Positions 71 through 42,929 of a DNA stretch of 62,833 nt are shown here, in pieces. The stretch covers positions 310,001 through 372,833 of the forward strand of contig JBEWZL010000227.1 of assembly GCA_045837725.1 (NCBI GenBank). The letters are read 5' to 3'. Numbering within the stretch: the first letter of the stretch is position 1; each line of letters opens with the position of its first letter. The position numbers were made by a program, and so were the translations under genes. Source of the stretch: Vermamoeba vermiformis (lineage: Eukaryota). A model generated the notes under the pieces. It made no database searches. It saw only the letters and a program-made list of their open reading frames with translations, and had not been told where the DNA came from.

Positions 71-2112
71 ATGGAGAAGAACGACGATAGAGTTATTAAC
101 AACGAGGAGTAAGTGTTAGACAATCTATTTTCGATAAATTTCTCACTTTATTTATTCTTAATTCATATTAATCTTTTAATCGTTATTAGTAATCAATTTT
201 ATATGCATTTAATGCTATTCAAATAGCAATATTATATTACGGATTTATTTTATTATTTTAAATACGCACCTCAAACAAATAATGCGATGTGACGTCACAT
301 CGAGGCTTACATAATGATTTCAGCAATCTACTATTATAATAATGTGCTATTTCAGGTTCGAGAACGATGCCGCTACAACAGCAGCAGATCTGATTCTAGA
401 TGTTGAAAACAAAATAACCGATGCCATGAGCCCAAGTGAGGCAGTCAAATGCAACGACGATAATAATGAAATTCATATATCAAACAACAATAATACCATG
501 GACGCAGCTGCTCAAAGTTCAAGCAATAATCTGCAACAAGCGAAACTTTCTAAAAAAGGAAACTCCGTTACCTTTCATACAGAACAACAGAGACAACGCG
601 CGATAGGCCTTAATAGCGCCTCTAAAGAGGATAAGAAGTATTTACAATTAAATGACGCGTTTTTCCCGCCAATGAAAGTTGAAAAAGGCAGTTGGCTGTC
701 CGAGAATAAAGAAAATGCGCAGCCCTTCTCAATTTACAAGAAAAAGAATGCCATATTGCCGTAAGTATATTAATATACATAGTATATTCGCTAGAAGTAT
801 TGATGTTCCGCTTTTAAGTCTAATTTGGCGTTTTCGCTTGATCAGATCAAACTTTTGAAATTTTGAAACTTTTAAAGCGACAACATCCCTTATTAGTATA
901 TAATATTATGAACGACACTATCTAAATGAATTGCACGTCATTCACATATTTAAAACAAATGCAAATTAGTTTTCTTTCGAATGTCCGTTCACGAACTGAT
1001 TTCCTTTTATAGCAAACCGACGAAAAACGTTATCTACGTGATACCCCTGGGAGACTTCCCAGAAGGTCTATCGCCAGATTTGTCAATCGTGCAACACTTC
1101 ACGGCCAGTTACTTTTACCCCGTTACAGTCGTGTTTTTGACACCTGTCAAAGAAATCGAGCGTACAGACCTCCATATGACAGTTGAGATTGAAGATGTCA
1201 AAAACAGGCTTGTAAAGCGACGCTACAAGCTGGCGATTGAGCTCCGAAATGGCAAAGTCATGTTTTTGACAGGTGACATCAAAGACATGTTGTTGAAAGA
1301 GAAATATTACTTGACCAATCGTAAGTACACCAATGACATCCACGTGATTTGTCGTGTCCGGACAGTAACGTATACGATGGCACGTGTCAAACGGCGTGTT
1401 CGAAAATCATTTCACTGAAATTCATTGCCACGCGACACGTAGCGCAGTTTTCATTCAATGACACGTTAAATTAACTTTGACATTTCTAAGTGTCATTTCG
1501 CGACGTTCTTCGTAATGACACGTGTCAACTCATGTTATCGATGCATTTCCCACCGAACTAACCGAGTAAATTTCACTTAGCATTCTGCGTCACGGCGATT
1601 ACTTTATGCGGCCTATTCACGAACTCTAAGGAATCCAAGTACCGCTATTTGTTAGGTAAATTATTCGACATCCGGCAAACGGATCAAATCCACAAAAAAA
1701 AACTAGCAGATCTAACTAAAAGTTCCTTATATGATTAGGTGAAGCATCAATAGGCCGTGGAGTAGGCGTGTTTCGCTGCGCTGGTTACAACAATCCTGAC
1801 GCCGTAAATTACCGCGACAAGTTGCTTCGACGTGCGTGTCAAGTACTTGCGCACGAGATTGGACACTTGTTTGGCCTCGAACACTGCACGTACCACGAGT
1901 GCGGCATGAACGGTGCCGTTGATATTCAAGAGAACGATCAGCTGCCGATTCATTTGTGTCCTGTGTGCCTCCACAAGCTCACATATGCGACTGGTTGCAG
2001 CATCAAAAACCGTTACGAAACATTGCTAGAATTTTACAAGCAACACTCAGCTTTTGTCCAAGAATACGACTGGCTGAATAGAAGACTAAAACACGTCTCG
2101 GAATCACTTTAG
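71..2112 (+). CDS. Archaemetzincin-like zinc metalloprotease (peptidase M54), 5 exons
   Basis: Exons 71-108, 356-760, 1013-1320, 1581-1655 and 1739-2112 join in frame at GT-AG junctions. The last exon has the metzincin motif HEIGHLFGLEHC, followed by C-x-MNG and LCPVCLHKL as in archaemetzincins. Confidence 0.9.
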
Positions 2113-21610: not shown

Positions 21611-22047
21611 ACTATGATTCCATCGTGTACATACAATAAATTACTTAAACCAAAATTAGAAGGTTGTAATGCCGATGACAACAATTTCCGCACTGTTGCA
21701 ACAGCGATGGCATTGTCGACAATGATACTACTATATGTAAATGTCAAGAATTTCATCCTGTCTCCTTGTAGAAAGACTATCTTTGTGGGACCGCTTGTGA
21801 AACGTGTCTCTTATTATGTCGCTAAGATCTAGATCGAAAGAAGCGATTCCACAAGCACCACAATAGCCTGATTAAGATATATTTTTGCGAGTAAATTGTC
21901 GAAACGAATTTAAGAAGGTTAGTATTTTAAGACGACTTTAATTAAATCGAAAATTAATAAGTATTTAAAAAACGAAGTACTCCCAGCAACAATTAGTTAG
22001 TGTTAATAGAGGGGCGACATTAATTCATTTTTTTTCTCGCAGAACAC

Positions 22048-23158
22048 ATGGAACACGCCAAGGGACCAATTATATTCGATATTGGCTCGACGGTTGGAAA
22101 AGCAGGCTTCATTGACCAAGTAGAGCCTTTAAAGTGGCCTTCCATTGTGAGTTATCCAAAATGTCTCAAAAGTGCTGAACGAAAACACATCTACGTTGGC
22201 GACAGCGCGGTAGTACAGCGGCCATTGCAAGTATATGAATATCCAGTCCATCGAGGGCTAATAACGGACTGGAATTATATTGAAAGGATGTGGCGGTATG
22301 CTTTTGAAGAATTCCATGGCGATCCTGAAGAACACTCAGTTATGCTCTTAGAGCATCCACTAACACCAAAAGCTGCTCGCGAGAAGACTACACAAATAAT
22401 GTTTGAAACGTTCAAAGTACCTGCGGTCTTCATGGCCAATCCGTGCGTTGCTTCGATGCGCGCGGTCGGACGGACCACTGGAGTGGCCGTGAGCATGGGC
22501 GGACAGACTACATATTCGATGGCTGTCAAGGACGGCAAGGGCATGATAGAAACACTAAATTCGATGGATATTGGGTCTCAGGATGTTGTAGCCAGTTTCA
22601 TGAAGTCCATGATTCCCGAGAACTGGGACTCAGAGAACTTAACTTACCAAAATCTCGCTGCGCATATTCTTCGAAAGATAGGATACATAGCACTAGATTA
22701 CAATACTGAACTTCAAAAACTAGATAGTGAAGTGTCAGCCAGCTACGAAGATAAATATTGTGCCCTTACTTCGTCTTTCATCACGAGCGGTTCATGCACA
22801 CGGAGATAGTTTCCGCGAGCTGTTTGGACTCGAGAAGAGCGGCATTCACGACATGATATACAATTCAGTTAACAAGTGTGAACCAAGCATTCAGAGCGAA
22901 CTGTTCAAGAACATCGTTCTGTCCGGTGGTAATTCAATGACATGTGGGCTCGATGCGCGACTGATCAAAGAGCTTCAAATACTCTCGCCAGAGCACAGTA
23001 AGCACATGAGAATCGAACCAGGACTCTCGAGATTGGATCTGCCCTTCATTGGAGCTGCACGATTGGCTCAAACGCTCACTGATTGGATGACCAAAGCCGA
23101 GTACGACGAAGTTGGTACTTTGTTAGTGCATGAGAAGTGTCCAATAGGAGTGTGGTAG
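22048..23158 (+). CDS. Divergent intronless actin-related protein with two apparent frameshifts (pseudogene or assembly indels)
   Basis: Actin motifs IIFDIGS-x-x-x-KAGF, YPVHRGLITDW, REKTTQIMFETFKVPA, NIVLSGGNSM, WMTKAEYDEVG. The reading frame changes twice in 22760-22815. Confidence 0.85.
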
Positions 23159-29514: not shown

Positions 29515-31007
29515 ATGGAGCACTTAGAAGAGAGTTGGGTTCAAGTCGAGCGTGATCTGAAGGAAATTATCACTTTAAAGGTCTTCAATCGCAATGCCTT
29601 ATTATCAGGTGTGCGCAACAATTTCCAAGCCTGCCTGGAACTCGAAAGCGGCATACTACAGACTCAAAAGAAACGTCCAGCATTTAACTTATGCTTAGGT
29701 AAGTCTTCACCATGCAATTTTGACTATAAATAGCATTGAATACTCTATAAACAGTAAAAATATTAATACTCGCTTCTTAGTCATCGATCAAAGCGGATCC
29801 ATGGAAGGCGACAAATTAGAATTCGCAAAGCAGGCCGCGACGATGATCGTTGAAAATCTGATTGAAGGCGACGTACTTCATATCGTTACTTATTCAGATA
29901 ATGCTACGACAATATTCTCGGGTGGAAATCATAAAACGAAGCAAGAGATTATTTCAGCCATCAACAGCATTCGCGCAACGAGTAAGCAAGGCAATCGAGA
30001 TATTTGAGGCCTGTAATTAACGGGAAATCTCATTTTAGACAACACGAACTTGTACGGAGGATTAGAACAAGGCTACTCAATCTTAGTCAAAGAGCCAAAC
30101 AATGCCCGCAAGAGAATCTTTTTGTTTTCAGACGGACTAGTCAATCACGGCAAGACAGACGAGAAGGATATATTCGAGGGCGTGAGACAGATGCACAAGT
30201 CAGACATTAACTTCACGACGTTTGGCATTGGCAGTGACTTTGACGAGAAGATAATGCGCGGTGTTGCCGAACATGGCAGTGGCGACTATTTCTTTATTAA
30301 ACAAGCTGAAGATATTGTTACACAAGTAGGCAAGGGCCTGAAAGTATTGGTACGTGTTGCATGAGACATAGTTTATTACAAATAGTACTAACTTGCCTTC
30401 AACTGTGCAGCAAGACTTAGTCGGTTGCAATGCTCAATTGACATTACAAGGACAGAATGGCGCTATTGTTACAAAAGTCTACGGCTACGATGACTTTGAC
30501 AAGGGCACAATTAAGCTCGGCGATATCTGTCAAGACGATTTGCGACAGTTGTTGATCGATGTTCAAGCGGATGTCACTCTTACAGACAGCGAGATCACGT
30601 ACTTGAACTGGACTCTCTCGTTCGAGTCTGCCGAGAAGGTCTCAAAACACATGGTGTTGAGTGGCGTGGCAAAGATCAAGGCAGTCAGCGACCCCGCCAA
30701 GATCGAGGACGACCCCGCTCAAGTCAAAGTGTCGCAAGCAGTCAAGTTCTCAGCAGAACAAGACCGCGCTATCAAAGAACTGATCCGAAATGGAGAATTC
30801 GATTCAGCCGTGGAGAAGAAGAAAGAGGCTGTTGCAGCCCTTGAAAAAGTTGTTTCGTACGACTCTACGGGTGTTGTCAAGGCACTACTCAAATTAGCTG
30901 AATCAGCAATCGTTACGCTCGCAGAGCAAAAAGACGTCGCGCAAATGGAAAAAGAAGCTGACTATGCTGAATATGGTGCTAGTATTGTGCACCGAAAGTG
31001 TTTCTAA
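29515..31007 (+). CDS. von Willebrand factor A (vWA) domain protein
   Basis: MIDAS motif VIDQSGSM, TNLYGGL, IFLFSDG, TTFGIGSDFDEKIMRGVAEHGSGDYFFI. 4 exons. Confidence 0.9.
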
Positions 31008-35701: not shown

Positions 35702-35789
35702 ATACAATGACTAATTTTGATATTACATATGCAATAAACTTTTAATTAAAAATCCGAGTTATTTATTCAAAATTTCGCATTCAGCTTGC

Positions 35790-38700
35790 TTAAAAGCCAA
35801 AATGTTTGTTCAAAGCCTCTTGAGCTTGTTGATCAACCTTAGCAATATCAGCCTTCAAACTGTCAACATTAGACTTCCATTCGTTCAATTTGTTCTCAAC
35901 GGCCTTGCGAGTAGCTTCGTTGGTCAATTGTTCATCACGGAGCAAACTGCCGAAGATGCGCAACAATTGCACGCGGTCGAGTTCAGGGTGCTTGGCAACG
36001 AGTTCAATCAACACGCCGTGGCAAACAACAGCCTCTTCGTGATCCTTGGTGATGGGCAACAACTTCATGAATTCGTCGACGAGCTTGTTGAACTCAACGG
36101 CCTCAGGAGTGTACAAGCACAACTTGCCCAAAGAGCTGATGGCGTTGTCGATGACAGGAGCGAACTCTTCGTCTTGCGACTTCTCGCCGTGAATCAACTC
36201 CTTCAAGCCCTTCAAAGCATCCTTGACGAAAGGAGCGTACTTGGCCTTGTAAGCTTGAGCATAGACACCAATGCCAAAGGCAGCAGCTTGAGCAACATCG
36301 TTCTCATCAGCTTGGATGTACTTGGTCACGACGGGCAAGAACTTCTCGAGCAAAGCAAAGCTCTCCTCGCCGATGTTCTCAGCAATGGCATCGACCATGC
36401 AGCACATGAACCAGGGACCGAATGCCTCCTTGAAGGCAGGAACAGCGGTCTTGGCGCCCTTCTTCTTGACAAGTCCGGCAATTTCAACCATACGTTGGTA
36501 GACCCAGAGATTGGGAGTGAAGGCCTTGACGAACAAGTCCTTGTTGTTCTTGGCAATAGCTTCAACAATGGAGATCAAATCACCGACAACAACGTCAGCC
36601 TCTTCAATATCACCATTGGGACTTTCGTCATCATCGTCTTCGTCGCCCATTTCTTCGTCATTTTCACCGGCCTCAGCAGCAACTTGATCAACAATTTCGA
36701 GAACAGTGGACATCAACTCGAACAATTTGTTGACTTGGTTGGCATTCAATTGGCCAAGGTTAATAAGAGCAGCCAAAGCCTCAAGCTTGGCATCGATAGT
36801 CTCGAGCGAAGGATCTTCAGTGACGGAGTTGATCAACGCGTGAATAATGTCAGAGAACAATTTGCTCTTGTCCTTGTCAGAGCCAGTAGCGCTCTTGTAC
36901 AAGCTGACCAATGAGATAGCAGCCTTCTCGCGGACCTTTTCCAAGTGAGCGTAGTTCAACATGTTGGAAGCCTTCTCGACGGCAACAGCGACGTGAGGAG
37001 CAAAGAGAGGACCCAAGTTCTCGGCAAAGAGACCGAGAGCCTTGACGGCCTTGGCCTTGTTGTTGAGTTGCAAGAACAAAGTCTGGTTCATGGCAGCAGG
37101 GTTAATACCGCCCATTGAAGCACCAGCACTCTTCATGCCACCCATATCATCGTCATCATCGTCTTCACCGAAGGGATCGATGTCGTCATCAGGGATATCT
37201 TCAACAGTCTCAATGATGGAGACAAGAGTCTTCATGTAGACATCCAAGTAAGGAGCGAAGTCTTGGCCGAGTACCTTGGCAGCGAGACCAGCAGTCAAGA
37301 CACAGACAGTCTTGAGCCAGTCTTCAGGGGATTGTTCCTTCTTTTCATTGCTCTCTTCCAGAGAAGGCAAATCGCCGAAGTTGAAAACAAAAGGCTTTTC
37401 ACCAGCAGGTTGAGCAGCGGGTTGAGCACCACCGAAGTTGAATGTGAAGTTGGGTTGAGCACCGGTAGTAGCGGCACCAAAGTTGAAGGTGGGGGCAGCA
37501 CCGGTGGAAGCAGTACCGAAGTTGAAAGCACCAGGAGTAGCGGGCTTGGGAGGTTGCTTGGCCTCAACTTCCTTGCGGATAGTCTCAAACTTCTTGACGG
37601 CAACATCGAGGGCAGCCTTGACAGCCTTCTTTGCCTCGTCGTCGACCTTGTATGAAGAAATTCTGCAAATGGTTTCGAGGACTTGACCAAGTTCTTCGTT
37701 GTCCTGAGTGTTCAACAACTTGGAGATGGCTTGCAAAGTGGCCTCACGGTAAGGCAAGAAGTGATCTTCTGCAGCACCAGCCAAAGCAGCAGCTGTGTAG
37801 AAAGAACGCTCGCGGATGTGCTTGTCCTCGCTGTTGATCAAAGGCAAGACACCCTCGAACAATCTCTTCAAGTAAGGAGCGAGGAGTTCAGGGTCGTCAA
37901 CCTTCTCGCAGAAGTTGTTCAATGAAGCAACGGCGACCAATTGGTTGCGCTTCTTAGTGCCGTCAAACAAGAAAGCCTCGAGGGCAGGCAAAATAGTGGC
38001 GTGGTATTTGTTTTGAAGCTCTGGGCCCAAGTCGTGCATCATCAAGCTGAGAGTGTGAACGGCAGCGTGAACGACGTCGGAGTGAGGGTGGTTCAATTGA
38101 GCCATAATGTAGTTCTTGAGGACCTTCTCCATCAAAGCGTCGCTAGTCTTGTAGACAGCAGCGCTGGCTTCGCAAGTAACAGCCAACATGAACAAAGCGG
38201 CGTGCTTGGCCTTGAAGTCAGCGTTGGGGTCAGTGAGAGGTTGGTCAACCAACTTCAAGACAGTGTTAAAGATAGTAGGGCCACCAACGACCATGCTCAA
38301 CTTGTCAACGTATTCAGTGAACTCTTGGTTAGGTCTGGGAGCATCGACGTCGCCAACCTTGTTGGGATCAGCATTCCATTCGTCGGTGGGCCAGTTGATC
38401 AACAAGTCTTGCAAAGCCTTCAACATCATGTGCAAGCTCTCATCGCTGACAGGGTTGACGTCATCCATTTCGTCGTGATCATGATTGCAGTTCTCGCCGT
38501 GCACGTGCTCGTGAGCGTGAGCCTTAGCCTTGGGTTCGGCGGGCTCTTCCTCATCGTCCTCTTCGTCTTCTTCATCTTCCTCATCGCCAAAATCAGCACC
38601 CATCATTTGAGCAACGGCGAATTGAGCAAGAGACTCCCAGACGTTAACAACGTTGTCCAACAACAAGTGGACGATCATCTTGCTGCGCTTGTTGTGCTTC

Positions 38701-40021
38701 AAGCAGATAGCCAACAAATCAGTCAAGTTGACGATGTACTTGTCGTTGTAGTTGTTGAAAAAGTTGACGACCTTAGTCTCAGGCTCGCCAATCAAATCTT
38801 CCCAAATAATGAAGACGCTTGCAACCAACTTCTGGTTGTTCTTTTCAATTTCTAAATAGCGCGGGTTAGAACACAGTGCCAGAAAACACAATCTTTGAGA
38901 TACGCACCAGGATTTTCGTTGACGTTGCCTTGGACAACTAAAACCTTCAAGAAGTCGAGCGAGAAATCAGCAAAGTTTTGCAAGAACTTCTCGAGGTTGG
39001 CGGGAGCAGCCTTGCCAGAAGTGATATCAATCATAGCGGCGTGAATAGTCTCCAACATAGCGCCGGCGTTCTTGGGATTCATTTCAGTTTCAGTCTTGTT
39101 GACTGGCTTGGGTGCCTCAGCGGCTTTAGCACTAGAAAATACAATGCATGGTCAGACACGGAATTCCAACTCGATATCCTCGGTTCGTTTGCTGCTTACC
39201 CTCCACGGGCCTTGCCTCCACGACCACGGCCGCCACGACCACCACGGCTGCTTGCAGCCTTGGCCTTTCGGGCGTTTTGCTTCTCCATAACAGTCCAGAG
39301 ATCTTGCTCGAGGGCAGTGTAAAGATCTCTGTTAATGAACCATTAGTCGTTGAAAAATGTCAGTATAAATCATTAAAAATATTACCTCAAAATATAGTAA
39401 CGGCGCCAGTCAACTTCATTGTTATCTGTTCGAAGAAAACAGTCAGATCGGATTAGGAAATTTAATTGAATAGAAATACGTGAGCTGTCATGTTTGATTT
39501 CGGTTCATTAAATCGTAAAAAAATATTAGCGTATGATTATGGGTAGCAGATTACTCGTACCAGTCAAAGGGATCAACCAGTTGGATTGATCGACCTTGTC
39601 TCCAGGGAGCTTAGTGGACCATCTCTTAGAGCAAATATTCTTCCACACTGTTTGATCTTCAGCAGATTGGGTCCATCCAGCAGCGCGAGCTTTTTCAGCT
39701 AAAAAGAAGACCGATCAGATCAGAAGATCAAGCAACACAAAAAAGCCAAGAATATTTGCATACGTCCAAGTACTACATAATTCGTTTATCATAAATGCAA
39801 CTTTGAGAACAAAATAATTAAATGCCGAAAACGATCTGCGAAACGGCTAGATTTGTGATCTGTGGGTGGATTTACCCCCTTAATTAATCAAAAATCATTT
39901 TGCAGGCATATCTGAATAAGCAACAAACTTGGAGTAATTATACACATTAACGAATCATACCAAGCTGGCGAGGGTCAGATTGATACAACGACCAAAGTTC
40001 GGCTTCTGACAACTTGTTCAT
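35790..40021 (-). CDS. Karyopherin-beta (importin-4/5-like) HEAT protein with an N-terminal F-box-like and RGG extension and an internal FNFG-repeat insertion
   Basis: Importin-5-like motifs VDKLSMVVGG, KHAALFMLA, HPHSDVVHAAVHTL, LGQDFAPYL, VAQAAAFGIG, IDNAISSLGK, LPITKDHEEA. In-frame exons 40021-39961, (39772-39764), 39698-39561, 39425-39386, 39328-39200, 39131-38908 and 38851-35790. Confidence 0.85.

Positions 40022-40258: not shown

Positions 40259-42929
<2,671 letters not shown>

Follow-up and report, generated by a model that had tools for sequence, protein, structure and literature searches.

A protein related to importin-5 with an internal loop of four FNFG units in Vermamoeba vermiformis

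The gene, its transcripts and the FG loop

The 62,833-nucleotide stretch of Vermamoeba vermiformis DNA analysed here (contig JBEWZL010000227.1, positions 310,001 to 372,833 of the forward strand; hereafter the window) carries on its minus strand, at 40021..35790, a gene of six exons for an importin-5-like product of 1217 aa. When joined, the exons form an open frame of 3654 nt (1217 codons), and the product is 87.3% identical from end to end to that of a relative, P0005. Within its solenoid of HEAT repeats lies a disordered loop containing four FNFG units, that is, phenylalanine-glycine (FG) motifs of the FxFG type, and this loop is the subject of the present study. Most of the analyses used P0002, the 1019-residue product of window positions 35793-38849 (minus strand), to which residue numbers refer unless stated otherwise.

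The loop (37329..37556, minus strand; residues 432-507, or about 629-705 of the 1217-aa product) is delimited by an AlphaFold2 (AF2) model, by a gap in a profile alignment and by a comparison of loop lengths. Its FG peptide, residues 439-492 (37374-37535, minus strand), holds the four units F442/F444, F455/F457, F470/F472 and F489/F491 at a spacing of 13-19 residues, separated by uncharged spacers rich in A, T, P, Q and G; together with F468 and F487 this amounts to 10 Phe in 50 residues. Chance does not explain the units, as none of 20000 shuffles of the 1019-residue P0002 yielded at least four FxFG motifs. Nor are they a fresh duplication, because the DNA of the segment shows no tandem repeat except for a 12-nt spacer unit in 2.2 copies. 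The FG segment alone matched no Pfam family at E values up to 0.1, and the whole protein gave no match to Nucleoporin_FG at E values up to 1.

The segment is in frame within exon 6 and ends 35 residues before the sequence LGQDFAPYL, which aligns with the LGKEFQQYL helix of human importin-5. A pairwise alignment with the human protein breaks at query residues 388-521 (importin-5 550-608), no columns of the importin-5 profile stand opposite the FG stretch (hhalign), and in the AF2 model residues 439-504 have a predicted local distance difference test score (pLDDT) below 50, between confident helices at 404-431 and 508-548. Loop length was measured as the number of residues between the Phe anchors F421 and F531, which are kept in 106 and 109, respectively, of 111 aligned proteins. 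By this measure the loop has 109 aa in the window protein and 106 aa in the relative. Across 109 canonical relatives its length ranges from 39 to 73 aa, with a median of 43; an FxFG occurs there in none of them and a single FG in 4. When whole proteins were counted, none of 165 other importin-5-like sequences had two or more FxFG motifs, 10 had one and 155 had none; in eight relatives with 3 FG dipeptides inside a stretch of 80 residues the dipeptides were scattered in HEAT helices and were not repeats. These data confirm that the FG segment is a true loop insertion of about 65 residues, and that inserts of this kind are uncommon in the family.

A first-pass annotation, made from the letters alone, had described a low-complexity insertion with four FNFG units and A/T/P/Q/G spacers, in frame within one long exon and just before an importin-5-like LGQDFAPYL helix. 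Its peptide is recovered letter for letter and the helix is where it was placed; the suppositions that the segment is a loop insertion relative to the importin family, and unusual among IPO4/5-type proteins, are borne out by the comparisons just given. The single long exon holds for the FG segment, which lies within the 3062 nt of exon 6, while the gene itself is larger and has five further exons.

Exon 6 (35790..38851, minus strand, stop codon included) encodes residues 199-1217 of the 1217-aa product. A tblastn search with P0005 (1215 aa) found four more coding blocks upstream of it. Exon 1 (39961..40021) starts with the codon at 40021 (MNKLSEAELW...) and is defined by this search and by a joint 39698->39961 in the three RNA data sets described below. 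Exon 2 (39561..39698), encoding a Trp-rich N-terminal segment with no Pfam family match, rests on tblastn, on the spliced contigs and on the open joined frame. Exon 3 (39386..39425) is bounded by the joints 39425->39561 and 39328->39386, exon 4 (39200..39328), which encodes an arginine-glycine-glycine (RGG) box, by joints in the spliced contigs, and exon 5 (38908..39131), a helical region, by the joints 39131->39200 and 38851->38908; all are on the minus strand. An internal Met in exon 5 is the start used by shorter gene models.

Expression was assessed in three public runs, X1, X2 and X3, each from a different study, whose contigs are 95-99% alike to the window. The five introns, at 38852-38907, 39132-39199, 39329-39385, 39426-39560 and 39699-39960, all read GT..AG on the minus strand and are missing from the contigs of all three runs, which therefore stem from spliced RNA. 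In each of these runs the FG region is traversed unbroken (X1 over 36325-38198, X2 over 37064-37583, X3 over 36610-37793), with no joint or indel reported there. The 1215-aa product of the relative, FG loop included, is encoded on a contig of 3724 nt that has no room for introns. The FG loop is thus confirmed to be present in expressed, spliced RNA, as the first-pass annotation had anticipated. The only other joint, 37167->38560 in X3 (side 22, CC..CC ends), coincides with low-complexity acidic runs. In the raw polyA run X24, from another organism, only 32 partial reads fell on acidic low-complexity runs and all ran into unlike sequence; this run does not bear on expression.

Two genomic gene calls of the relative (P0026 and P0035, as compared with P0005) leave the frame after ...GEKSEDE, where the transcript-derived products go on; the relative's gene apparently contains one intron in its C-terminal part that is not present in the window species. 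Opposite the importin-5-like exon, the plus strand has open frames at 35721-36914 (397 codons), 37119-37655 (178) and 37926-38855 (309) with repetitive L/V/Q-rich translations, most likely by-products of codon bias on the sense strand.

Homologues were sought by a word-based search over 5.8 billion proteins and a full HMMER scan over 1.84 billion cluster representatives. Besides the window's own product, both returned a single relative (P0005), 86-87% identical, with canonical importin-5 proteins next at 24-29%; relatives of intermediate similarity were absent among the 1.84 billion cluster-representative proteins. A metagenome scan for further relatives gave one locus (L001), which covers only query residues 1-232, outside the FG loop. 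The best canonical importin-5 matches are scattered over several supergroups (Rhodelphis, Populus, Gonapodya, Amoeba, Dermamoeba).

In the relative the units read AFNFG, TFNFG, TFNFG and FVFNFS. It has 9 Phe there, one fewer than the window protein, although the spacers contain indels. The expectation that an orthologue would conserve the Phe residues thus holds in the one close relative available. Strain differences point the same way: exon 6 has 39 in the list (a further 43 over the whole stretch lie beyond it), and 36 of those 39 are synonymous. Within the FG loop, 5 of the 6 differences listed are synonymous, the exception being F472L in X1 (window 37434), which hits the third FNFG unit; the other two strains keep Phe. 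The reading frame and most of the Phe residues are under constraint, and single units can degenerate, which is a general behaviour of FG domains.

The solenoid, the N-terminal region and the genomic surroundings

The C-terminal part of the product, about 880 residues, is confirmed as a HEAT solenoid of the importin-5/Kap121 type. In Pfam, TPR_IMB1 (39.3 bits, cut-off 29.1), HEAT_EZ and HEAT all score above their cut-offs. Sequence matches in the PDB (phmmer) are led by importin-5 (E 1.5e-38), Kap121 (2.3e-21) and importin-4 (7.6e-14), and hhalign aligns residues 338-1213 of P0005 to columns 306-1089 of the importin-5 profile with probability 100 and E 1.6e-64. The AF2 model, built from 65 sequences, has a mean pLDDT of 77.7, with residues 190-431 and 508-1017 modelled confidently; its best Foldseek matches are importin-5 and Kap121 (9im6, 6xu2, 3w3t; template modelling (TM) scores 0.60-0.65), followed by importin-4 and Kap123. 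Two blocks of repeats flank the FG loop. The central HEAT repeats (37557..38444, minus strand; residues 136-431) are homologous to about 313-550 of importin-5 and to 350-558 of Kap121, and the C-terminal HEAT repeats (35793..37328, minus strand; residues 508-1019), which contain two acidic loops, to 608-1025 of importin-5. In total the protein has three long acidic loops.

Residues D353, E396, D438 and N477 of Kap121, reported in the Kap121 structure paper to be its nuclear localisation signal (NLS) binding site, correspond to the identical D182, E227, D273 and N312 in the central HEAT repeats. Of the seven positions mutated in Kap121 these four are kept; in place of Q350 and N430 the present protein has E and H, respectively, and R349 lies beyond the alignment. 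All three positions of the D353K/E396K/D438K set that appears in a PDB title (entries 3w3u/3w3v) are among those kept.

In the window protein and its relative alike, the C-terminus is HFGF (35793-35804, minus strand), which is not an FxFG. C-terminal Phe motifs of importin-alpha and of importin-7/8 bind importin-beta; an FG or FxF occurs in the last 12 residues of 4 of the 109 canonical relatives, and the HFGF end may mean nothing.

The N-terminal region is of a different kind. Pfam scans gave no match to the IBN_N domain, whether run at E values up to 1 or up to 5, and hhalign did not align the first 337 residues with columns 1-305 of the importin-5 profile, which hold the Ran-binding arch; a forced local hhalign run of this region against the arch columns gave probabilities of 0.3-2%. 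The region comprises a Trp-rich segment, an RGG box, about 150 helical residues, and an acidic run with a His/Cys-rich stretch after it, and it shares the same spliced contigs with the HEAT body. As no Ran-binding arch was detected, the functional label karyopherin is not yet justified. The first-pass annotation, which had used this label, was right as to the importin-5/Kap121 solenoid, and its label does not extend to an N-terminus in which neither IBN_N nor similarity to the arch was detected.

The RGG box, RGGRGGRGRGG, occupies residues 108-118 of the 1217-aa product within SSRGGRGGRGRGGKARGG, is encoded by exon 4 and is conserved in P0005. RGG regions bind RNA and are themselves importin ligands; placed opposite the acidic loops of the same protein, the box could act like an internal cargo or in self-regulation. 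The acidic run DEEDEEDEEDDEEE and the subsequent His/Cys-rich stretch HAHEHVHGENCNHDHD (38445..38597, minus strand; residues 85-135, placed by translation and AF2) are identical in the relative at 41 of 50 positions. Residues 73-132 are modelled as disordered (pLDDT below 50), and the His/Cys-rich stretch resembles a metal-binding patch.

The roughly 100 Trp-rich residues at the N-terminus (exons 1-3, 39386-40021, minus strand) match no Pfam family. Of these, the initial 50 or so are modelled as three short helices, with pLDDT 64-81 over the first 40; an AF2 model of the N-terminal 285 residues of the relative, made without an alignment, had a mean pLDDT of 44.7, too low to be of use. The best ESM Atlas score for N-terminal residues 1-125 was 0.82. 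An F-box was considered for this region and is now a weak lead: the F-box clusters of the ESM Atlas scored 0.76-0.79 for residues 1-125, within the chance range, and Pfam gave no F-box. If the N-terminus were an F-box, the protein would be read quite differently, as an adaptor of an Skp1-cullin-F-box (SCF) complex.

The window has a G+C content of 38-48% and is rich in introns, which are short, of the GT..AG type, with a CTAAC- or CTGAC-like element close to the 3' end. Other genes include an archaemetzincin-type M54 peptidase (1735-2109, plus strand), a VWA-domain protein (30017-31004, plus strand) and a 6-phosphofructo-2-kinase (6PF2K) / histidine phosphatase (40663-41412, minus strand), as well as a thioredoxin-like open reading frame with a weak match. 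The neighbours are an ordinary housekeeping context, and no other transport genes are nearby. A divergent actin-family gene (Pfam Actin, E 3.6e-38) is found at 22024-23155 on the plus strand. Among named proteins of similar length the best match, at 53% identity, comes from Vermamoeba vermiformis; when the search was confined to longer proteins, the only matches were from dinoflagellates at 34-35%, and ordinary actins are only about 35% identical.

Possible roles of the FG loop

Of several conceivable explanations we favour, tentatively and with a confidence that stays short of even, a lineage-restricted derivative of importin-5/Kap121 (KAP-beta3) whose FG loop docks other FG-binding receptors in trans. 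We build here on the observed gene structure and on the expression, position, rarity and frame constraint of the loop, and every binding step is one that we infer. The inter-repeat loop equivalent to about 551-607 of human importin-5 has gained some 65 residues and now forms a small FxFG domain of the nucleoporin type. By analogy with the importin-7/8 tail discussed below, this domain might dock in trans to the FG pockets of a partner of the importin-beta type, or possibly of NTF2. The central arch and the acidic loops would hold basic cargo, so that the protein might act as a cargo-holding co-receptor or chaperone, and the partner receptor would supply passage through the pore and Ran-driven release, which may be beyond the protein alone.

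Several observations weigh against such a receptor-docking role. Conservation is shallow, the protein being seen in only two closely related species, and between these the FG loop is identical at 51 of 67 positions (76%) with 3 gap columns, as compared with 86-90% elsewhere in the protein. Individual units are not strictly fixed, as seen from F472L in one strain and FNFS in the relative. The positions equivalent to D353, E396, D438 and N477 are nearly invariant across the whole family. The motif is internal and not in a C-terminal tail, and the translation contains no GGxxF, unlike Imp7/8. The undetected Ran-binding arch may reflect extreme divergence and not loss; the N-terminal models are poor, so that extreme divergence is indistinguishable from replacement. 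Finally, four units exceed the need of heterodimerisation, and a role in the pore phase or one like that of a nucleoporin fits as well.

Foremost among the alternatives, though unlikely, is a neutral process, where a disordered low-complexity insert has expanded because it is tolerated and its FNFG units have no specific ligand. That the loop is the least conserved part of the protein, that units vary in one strain and in the relative, and that only two close species have the protein would all agree with this, as would the presence of other long low-complexity loops in the same protein. Against a neutral origin speak the retention of 9 Phe in the relative (10 in the window protein) although substitutions and in-frame indels altered the spacers, the predominance of synonymous changes among the loop differences listed, the outcome of the shuffles and the lack of a recent DNA repeat, and the finding that nothing similar exists at this loop in the 109 canonical relatives.

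A second alternative, which we consider distinctly doubtful, is self-masking, the first function suggested in the first-pass annotation: the FG loop would fold onto FG grooves on the outer face of the protein's own HEAT repeats and so bar the protein from the pore, or adjust its affinity for the pore, until cargo or a partner displaces the loop. A loop of about 75 disordered residues, tethered in the middle of the solenoid, could reach both arches, and its high local concentration would favour weak FG contacts. However, the FG pockets of importin-beta have been mapped structurally on HEAT 5-7 (work cited in PMC6436938, according to its accessible text), and the N-terminal region where these repeats would lie is not recognisably conserved here. 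A complex prediction of the FG loop with the two HEAT halves of the same protein scored 0.00 without controls, a value that weighs on neither side.

Doubtful to the same degree is the proposal that the protein is an FG nucleoporin derived from a karyopherin, residing stably in the pore or in an FG condensate, where its receptor-like scaffold would add FG motifs to the barrier, with the N-terminal domain or the RGG box as its anchor. The nucleoporin-like spacing of the FxFG units with their uncharged spacers would suit such a role, as would the novel N-terminal module on the same mRNA and the missing signal of a Ran-binding arch, which a shuttling receptor needs. In favour, too, the scaffold nucleoporins Nup188 and Nup192 are described as sharing properties with transport receptors in the available part of PMC3679522. 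Four units are few, though, next to FG nucleoporins. Pfam gave no nucleoporin match and no recognised pore-anchoring domain, and the cargo-site residues and acidic loops look like those of a working cargo binder.

Less probable again is a receptor/barrier hybrid, where a karyopherin-derived solenoid that has lost Ran control serves as a lineage-specific FG component that stays in the pore or an FG condensate or passes through it slowly, offering its acidic loops to basic cargo and its FxFG units to mobile receptors. It is extremely unlikely that the FG segment is an artefact of annotation, that is, an unrecognised intron or a mis-assembly, as three of three runs splice out five true introns and leave it intact, the relative's contig, too short for introns, contains it, and no GT..AG-bounded, frame-preserving unit within it was reported as a joint.

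Comparison with known transport proteins

FG motifs and the HEAT surfaces of karyopherins are the two halves of selective passage through the nuclear pore and are normally found on separate proteins. If the loop binds receptors, as we favour, evolution would have arrived repeatedly at receptor pairing by FG mimicry; if it masks the protein itself or parks it in the pore, it would represent a natural experiment on FG valency, tethering and pore affinity. A receptor/barrier hybrid, if true, would be a natural counterpart to the concept of karyopherins as integral parts of the permeability barrier. The F472L strain variant is a ready-made one for asking whether single FNFG units matter.

With importin-5 (RanBP5) and Kap121 (Pse1), the KAP-beta3 group, the protein shares a HEAT solenoid of about 880 residues at 24-29% identity, the cargo-site residues and the acidic loops. 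It differs in having no recognisable Ran-binding arch or IBN_N and in carrying an extra Trp-rich segment and an RGG box, and also in its 109-aa FG loop; in canonical members the corresponding loop lacks FxFG and has a median length of 43 aa. The multi-unit FxFG loop comes together with an apparent loss of the Ran-binding arch and the gain of an RGG box.

The FxFG nucleoporins are typified by Nsp1, Nup1, Nup2 and Nup153, and the loop resembles them in its FxFG tetrapeptides, which recur at intervals of 13-19 residues within disordered, low-complexity sequence. Here, there are only four units, no Nucleoporin_FG match, and a receptor-type solenoid in place of a pore-anchoring domain. RanBP3/Yrb2 and Nup50/Nup2 are soluble or mobile transport cofactors with a few FxFG motifs and a Ran-binding domain, not a HEAT solenoid; they resemble the present protein in having FxFG outside the core pore components, and no homology to them was seen.

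Full-text literature searches did not find an importin-5-type protein with FG repeats. In the available part of a review of FG proteins (PMC8311347), karyopherins appear solely as partners of FG proteins. A survey of the karyopherin-beta family (PMC3083441) reports, in its accessible text, little sign of major innovation after the last eukaryotic common ancestor and few chimeras, and domain-level novelty of the kind described here therefore appears uncommon.

The closest precedent is provided by Imp7 and Imp8. As given in the accessible text of Ivic et al. 2019 (PMC6436938), their disordered C-terminal tail contains a conserved GGxxF and FxFG that bind to the nucleoporin-binding pockets of importin-beta; mutation of the two Phe in this tail reduced importin-beta binding 7- to 10-fold and abolished import of histone H1, and the authors state that dimerisation by FG motifs is a more general mechanism. 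The statement of the first-pass annotation that FxFG repeats are not normally part of the receptor was therefore too strong, while its idea that the protein may piggy-back on other receptors has a direct precedent. Overall, its interpretation stands as regards the insertion, its retention in RNA, the kept Phe residues and the rarity of such inserts; it went too far in the claim about receptors, and the karyopherin label is only partly borne out.

Likeness to Imp7/8, as far as that source describes them, extends to a protein of the karyopherin-beta family, an FxFG in a disordered segment, and acidic cargo-chaperoning loops nearby. The differences are equally clear. In Imp7/8 a single FxFG stands at the very C-terminus, after GGxxF, whereas the present protein has four internal FNFG units and belongs to a different subfamily; the tail order of acidic R1, GGxxF and FxFG is not that seen here, and the best homology is to importin-5, not to importin-7/8. 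The Imp7/8 tail illustrates that one receptor-borne FxFG can pair two receptors, and here a separate subfamily has independently gained a multi-unit loop. An FG motif on a protein of the karyopherin family is thus unusual and has a precedent; what is new is that it is multi-unit and internal, occurs in another subfamily and is accompanied by a remodelled N-terminus.

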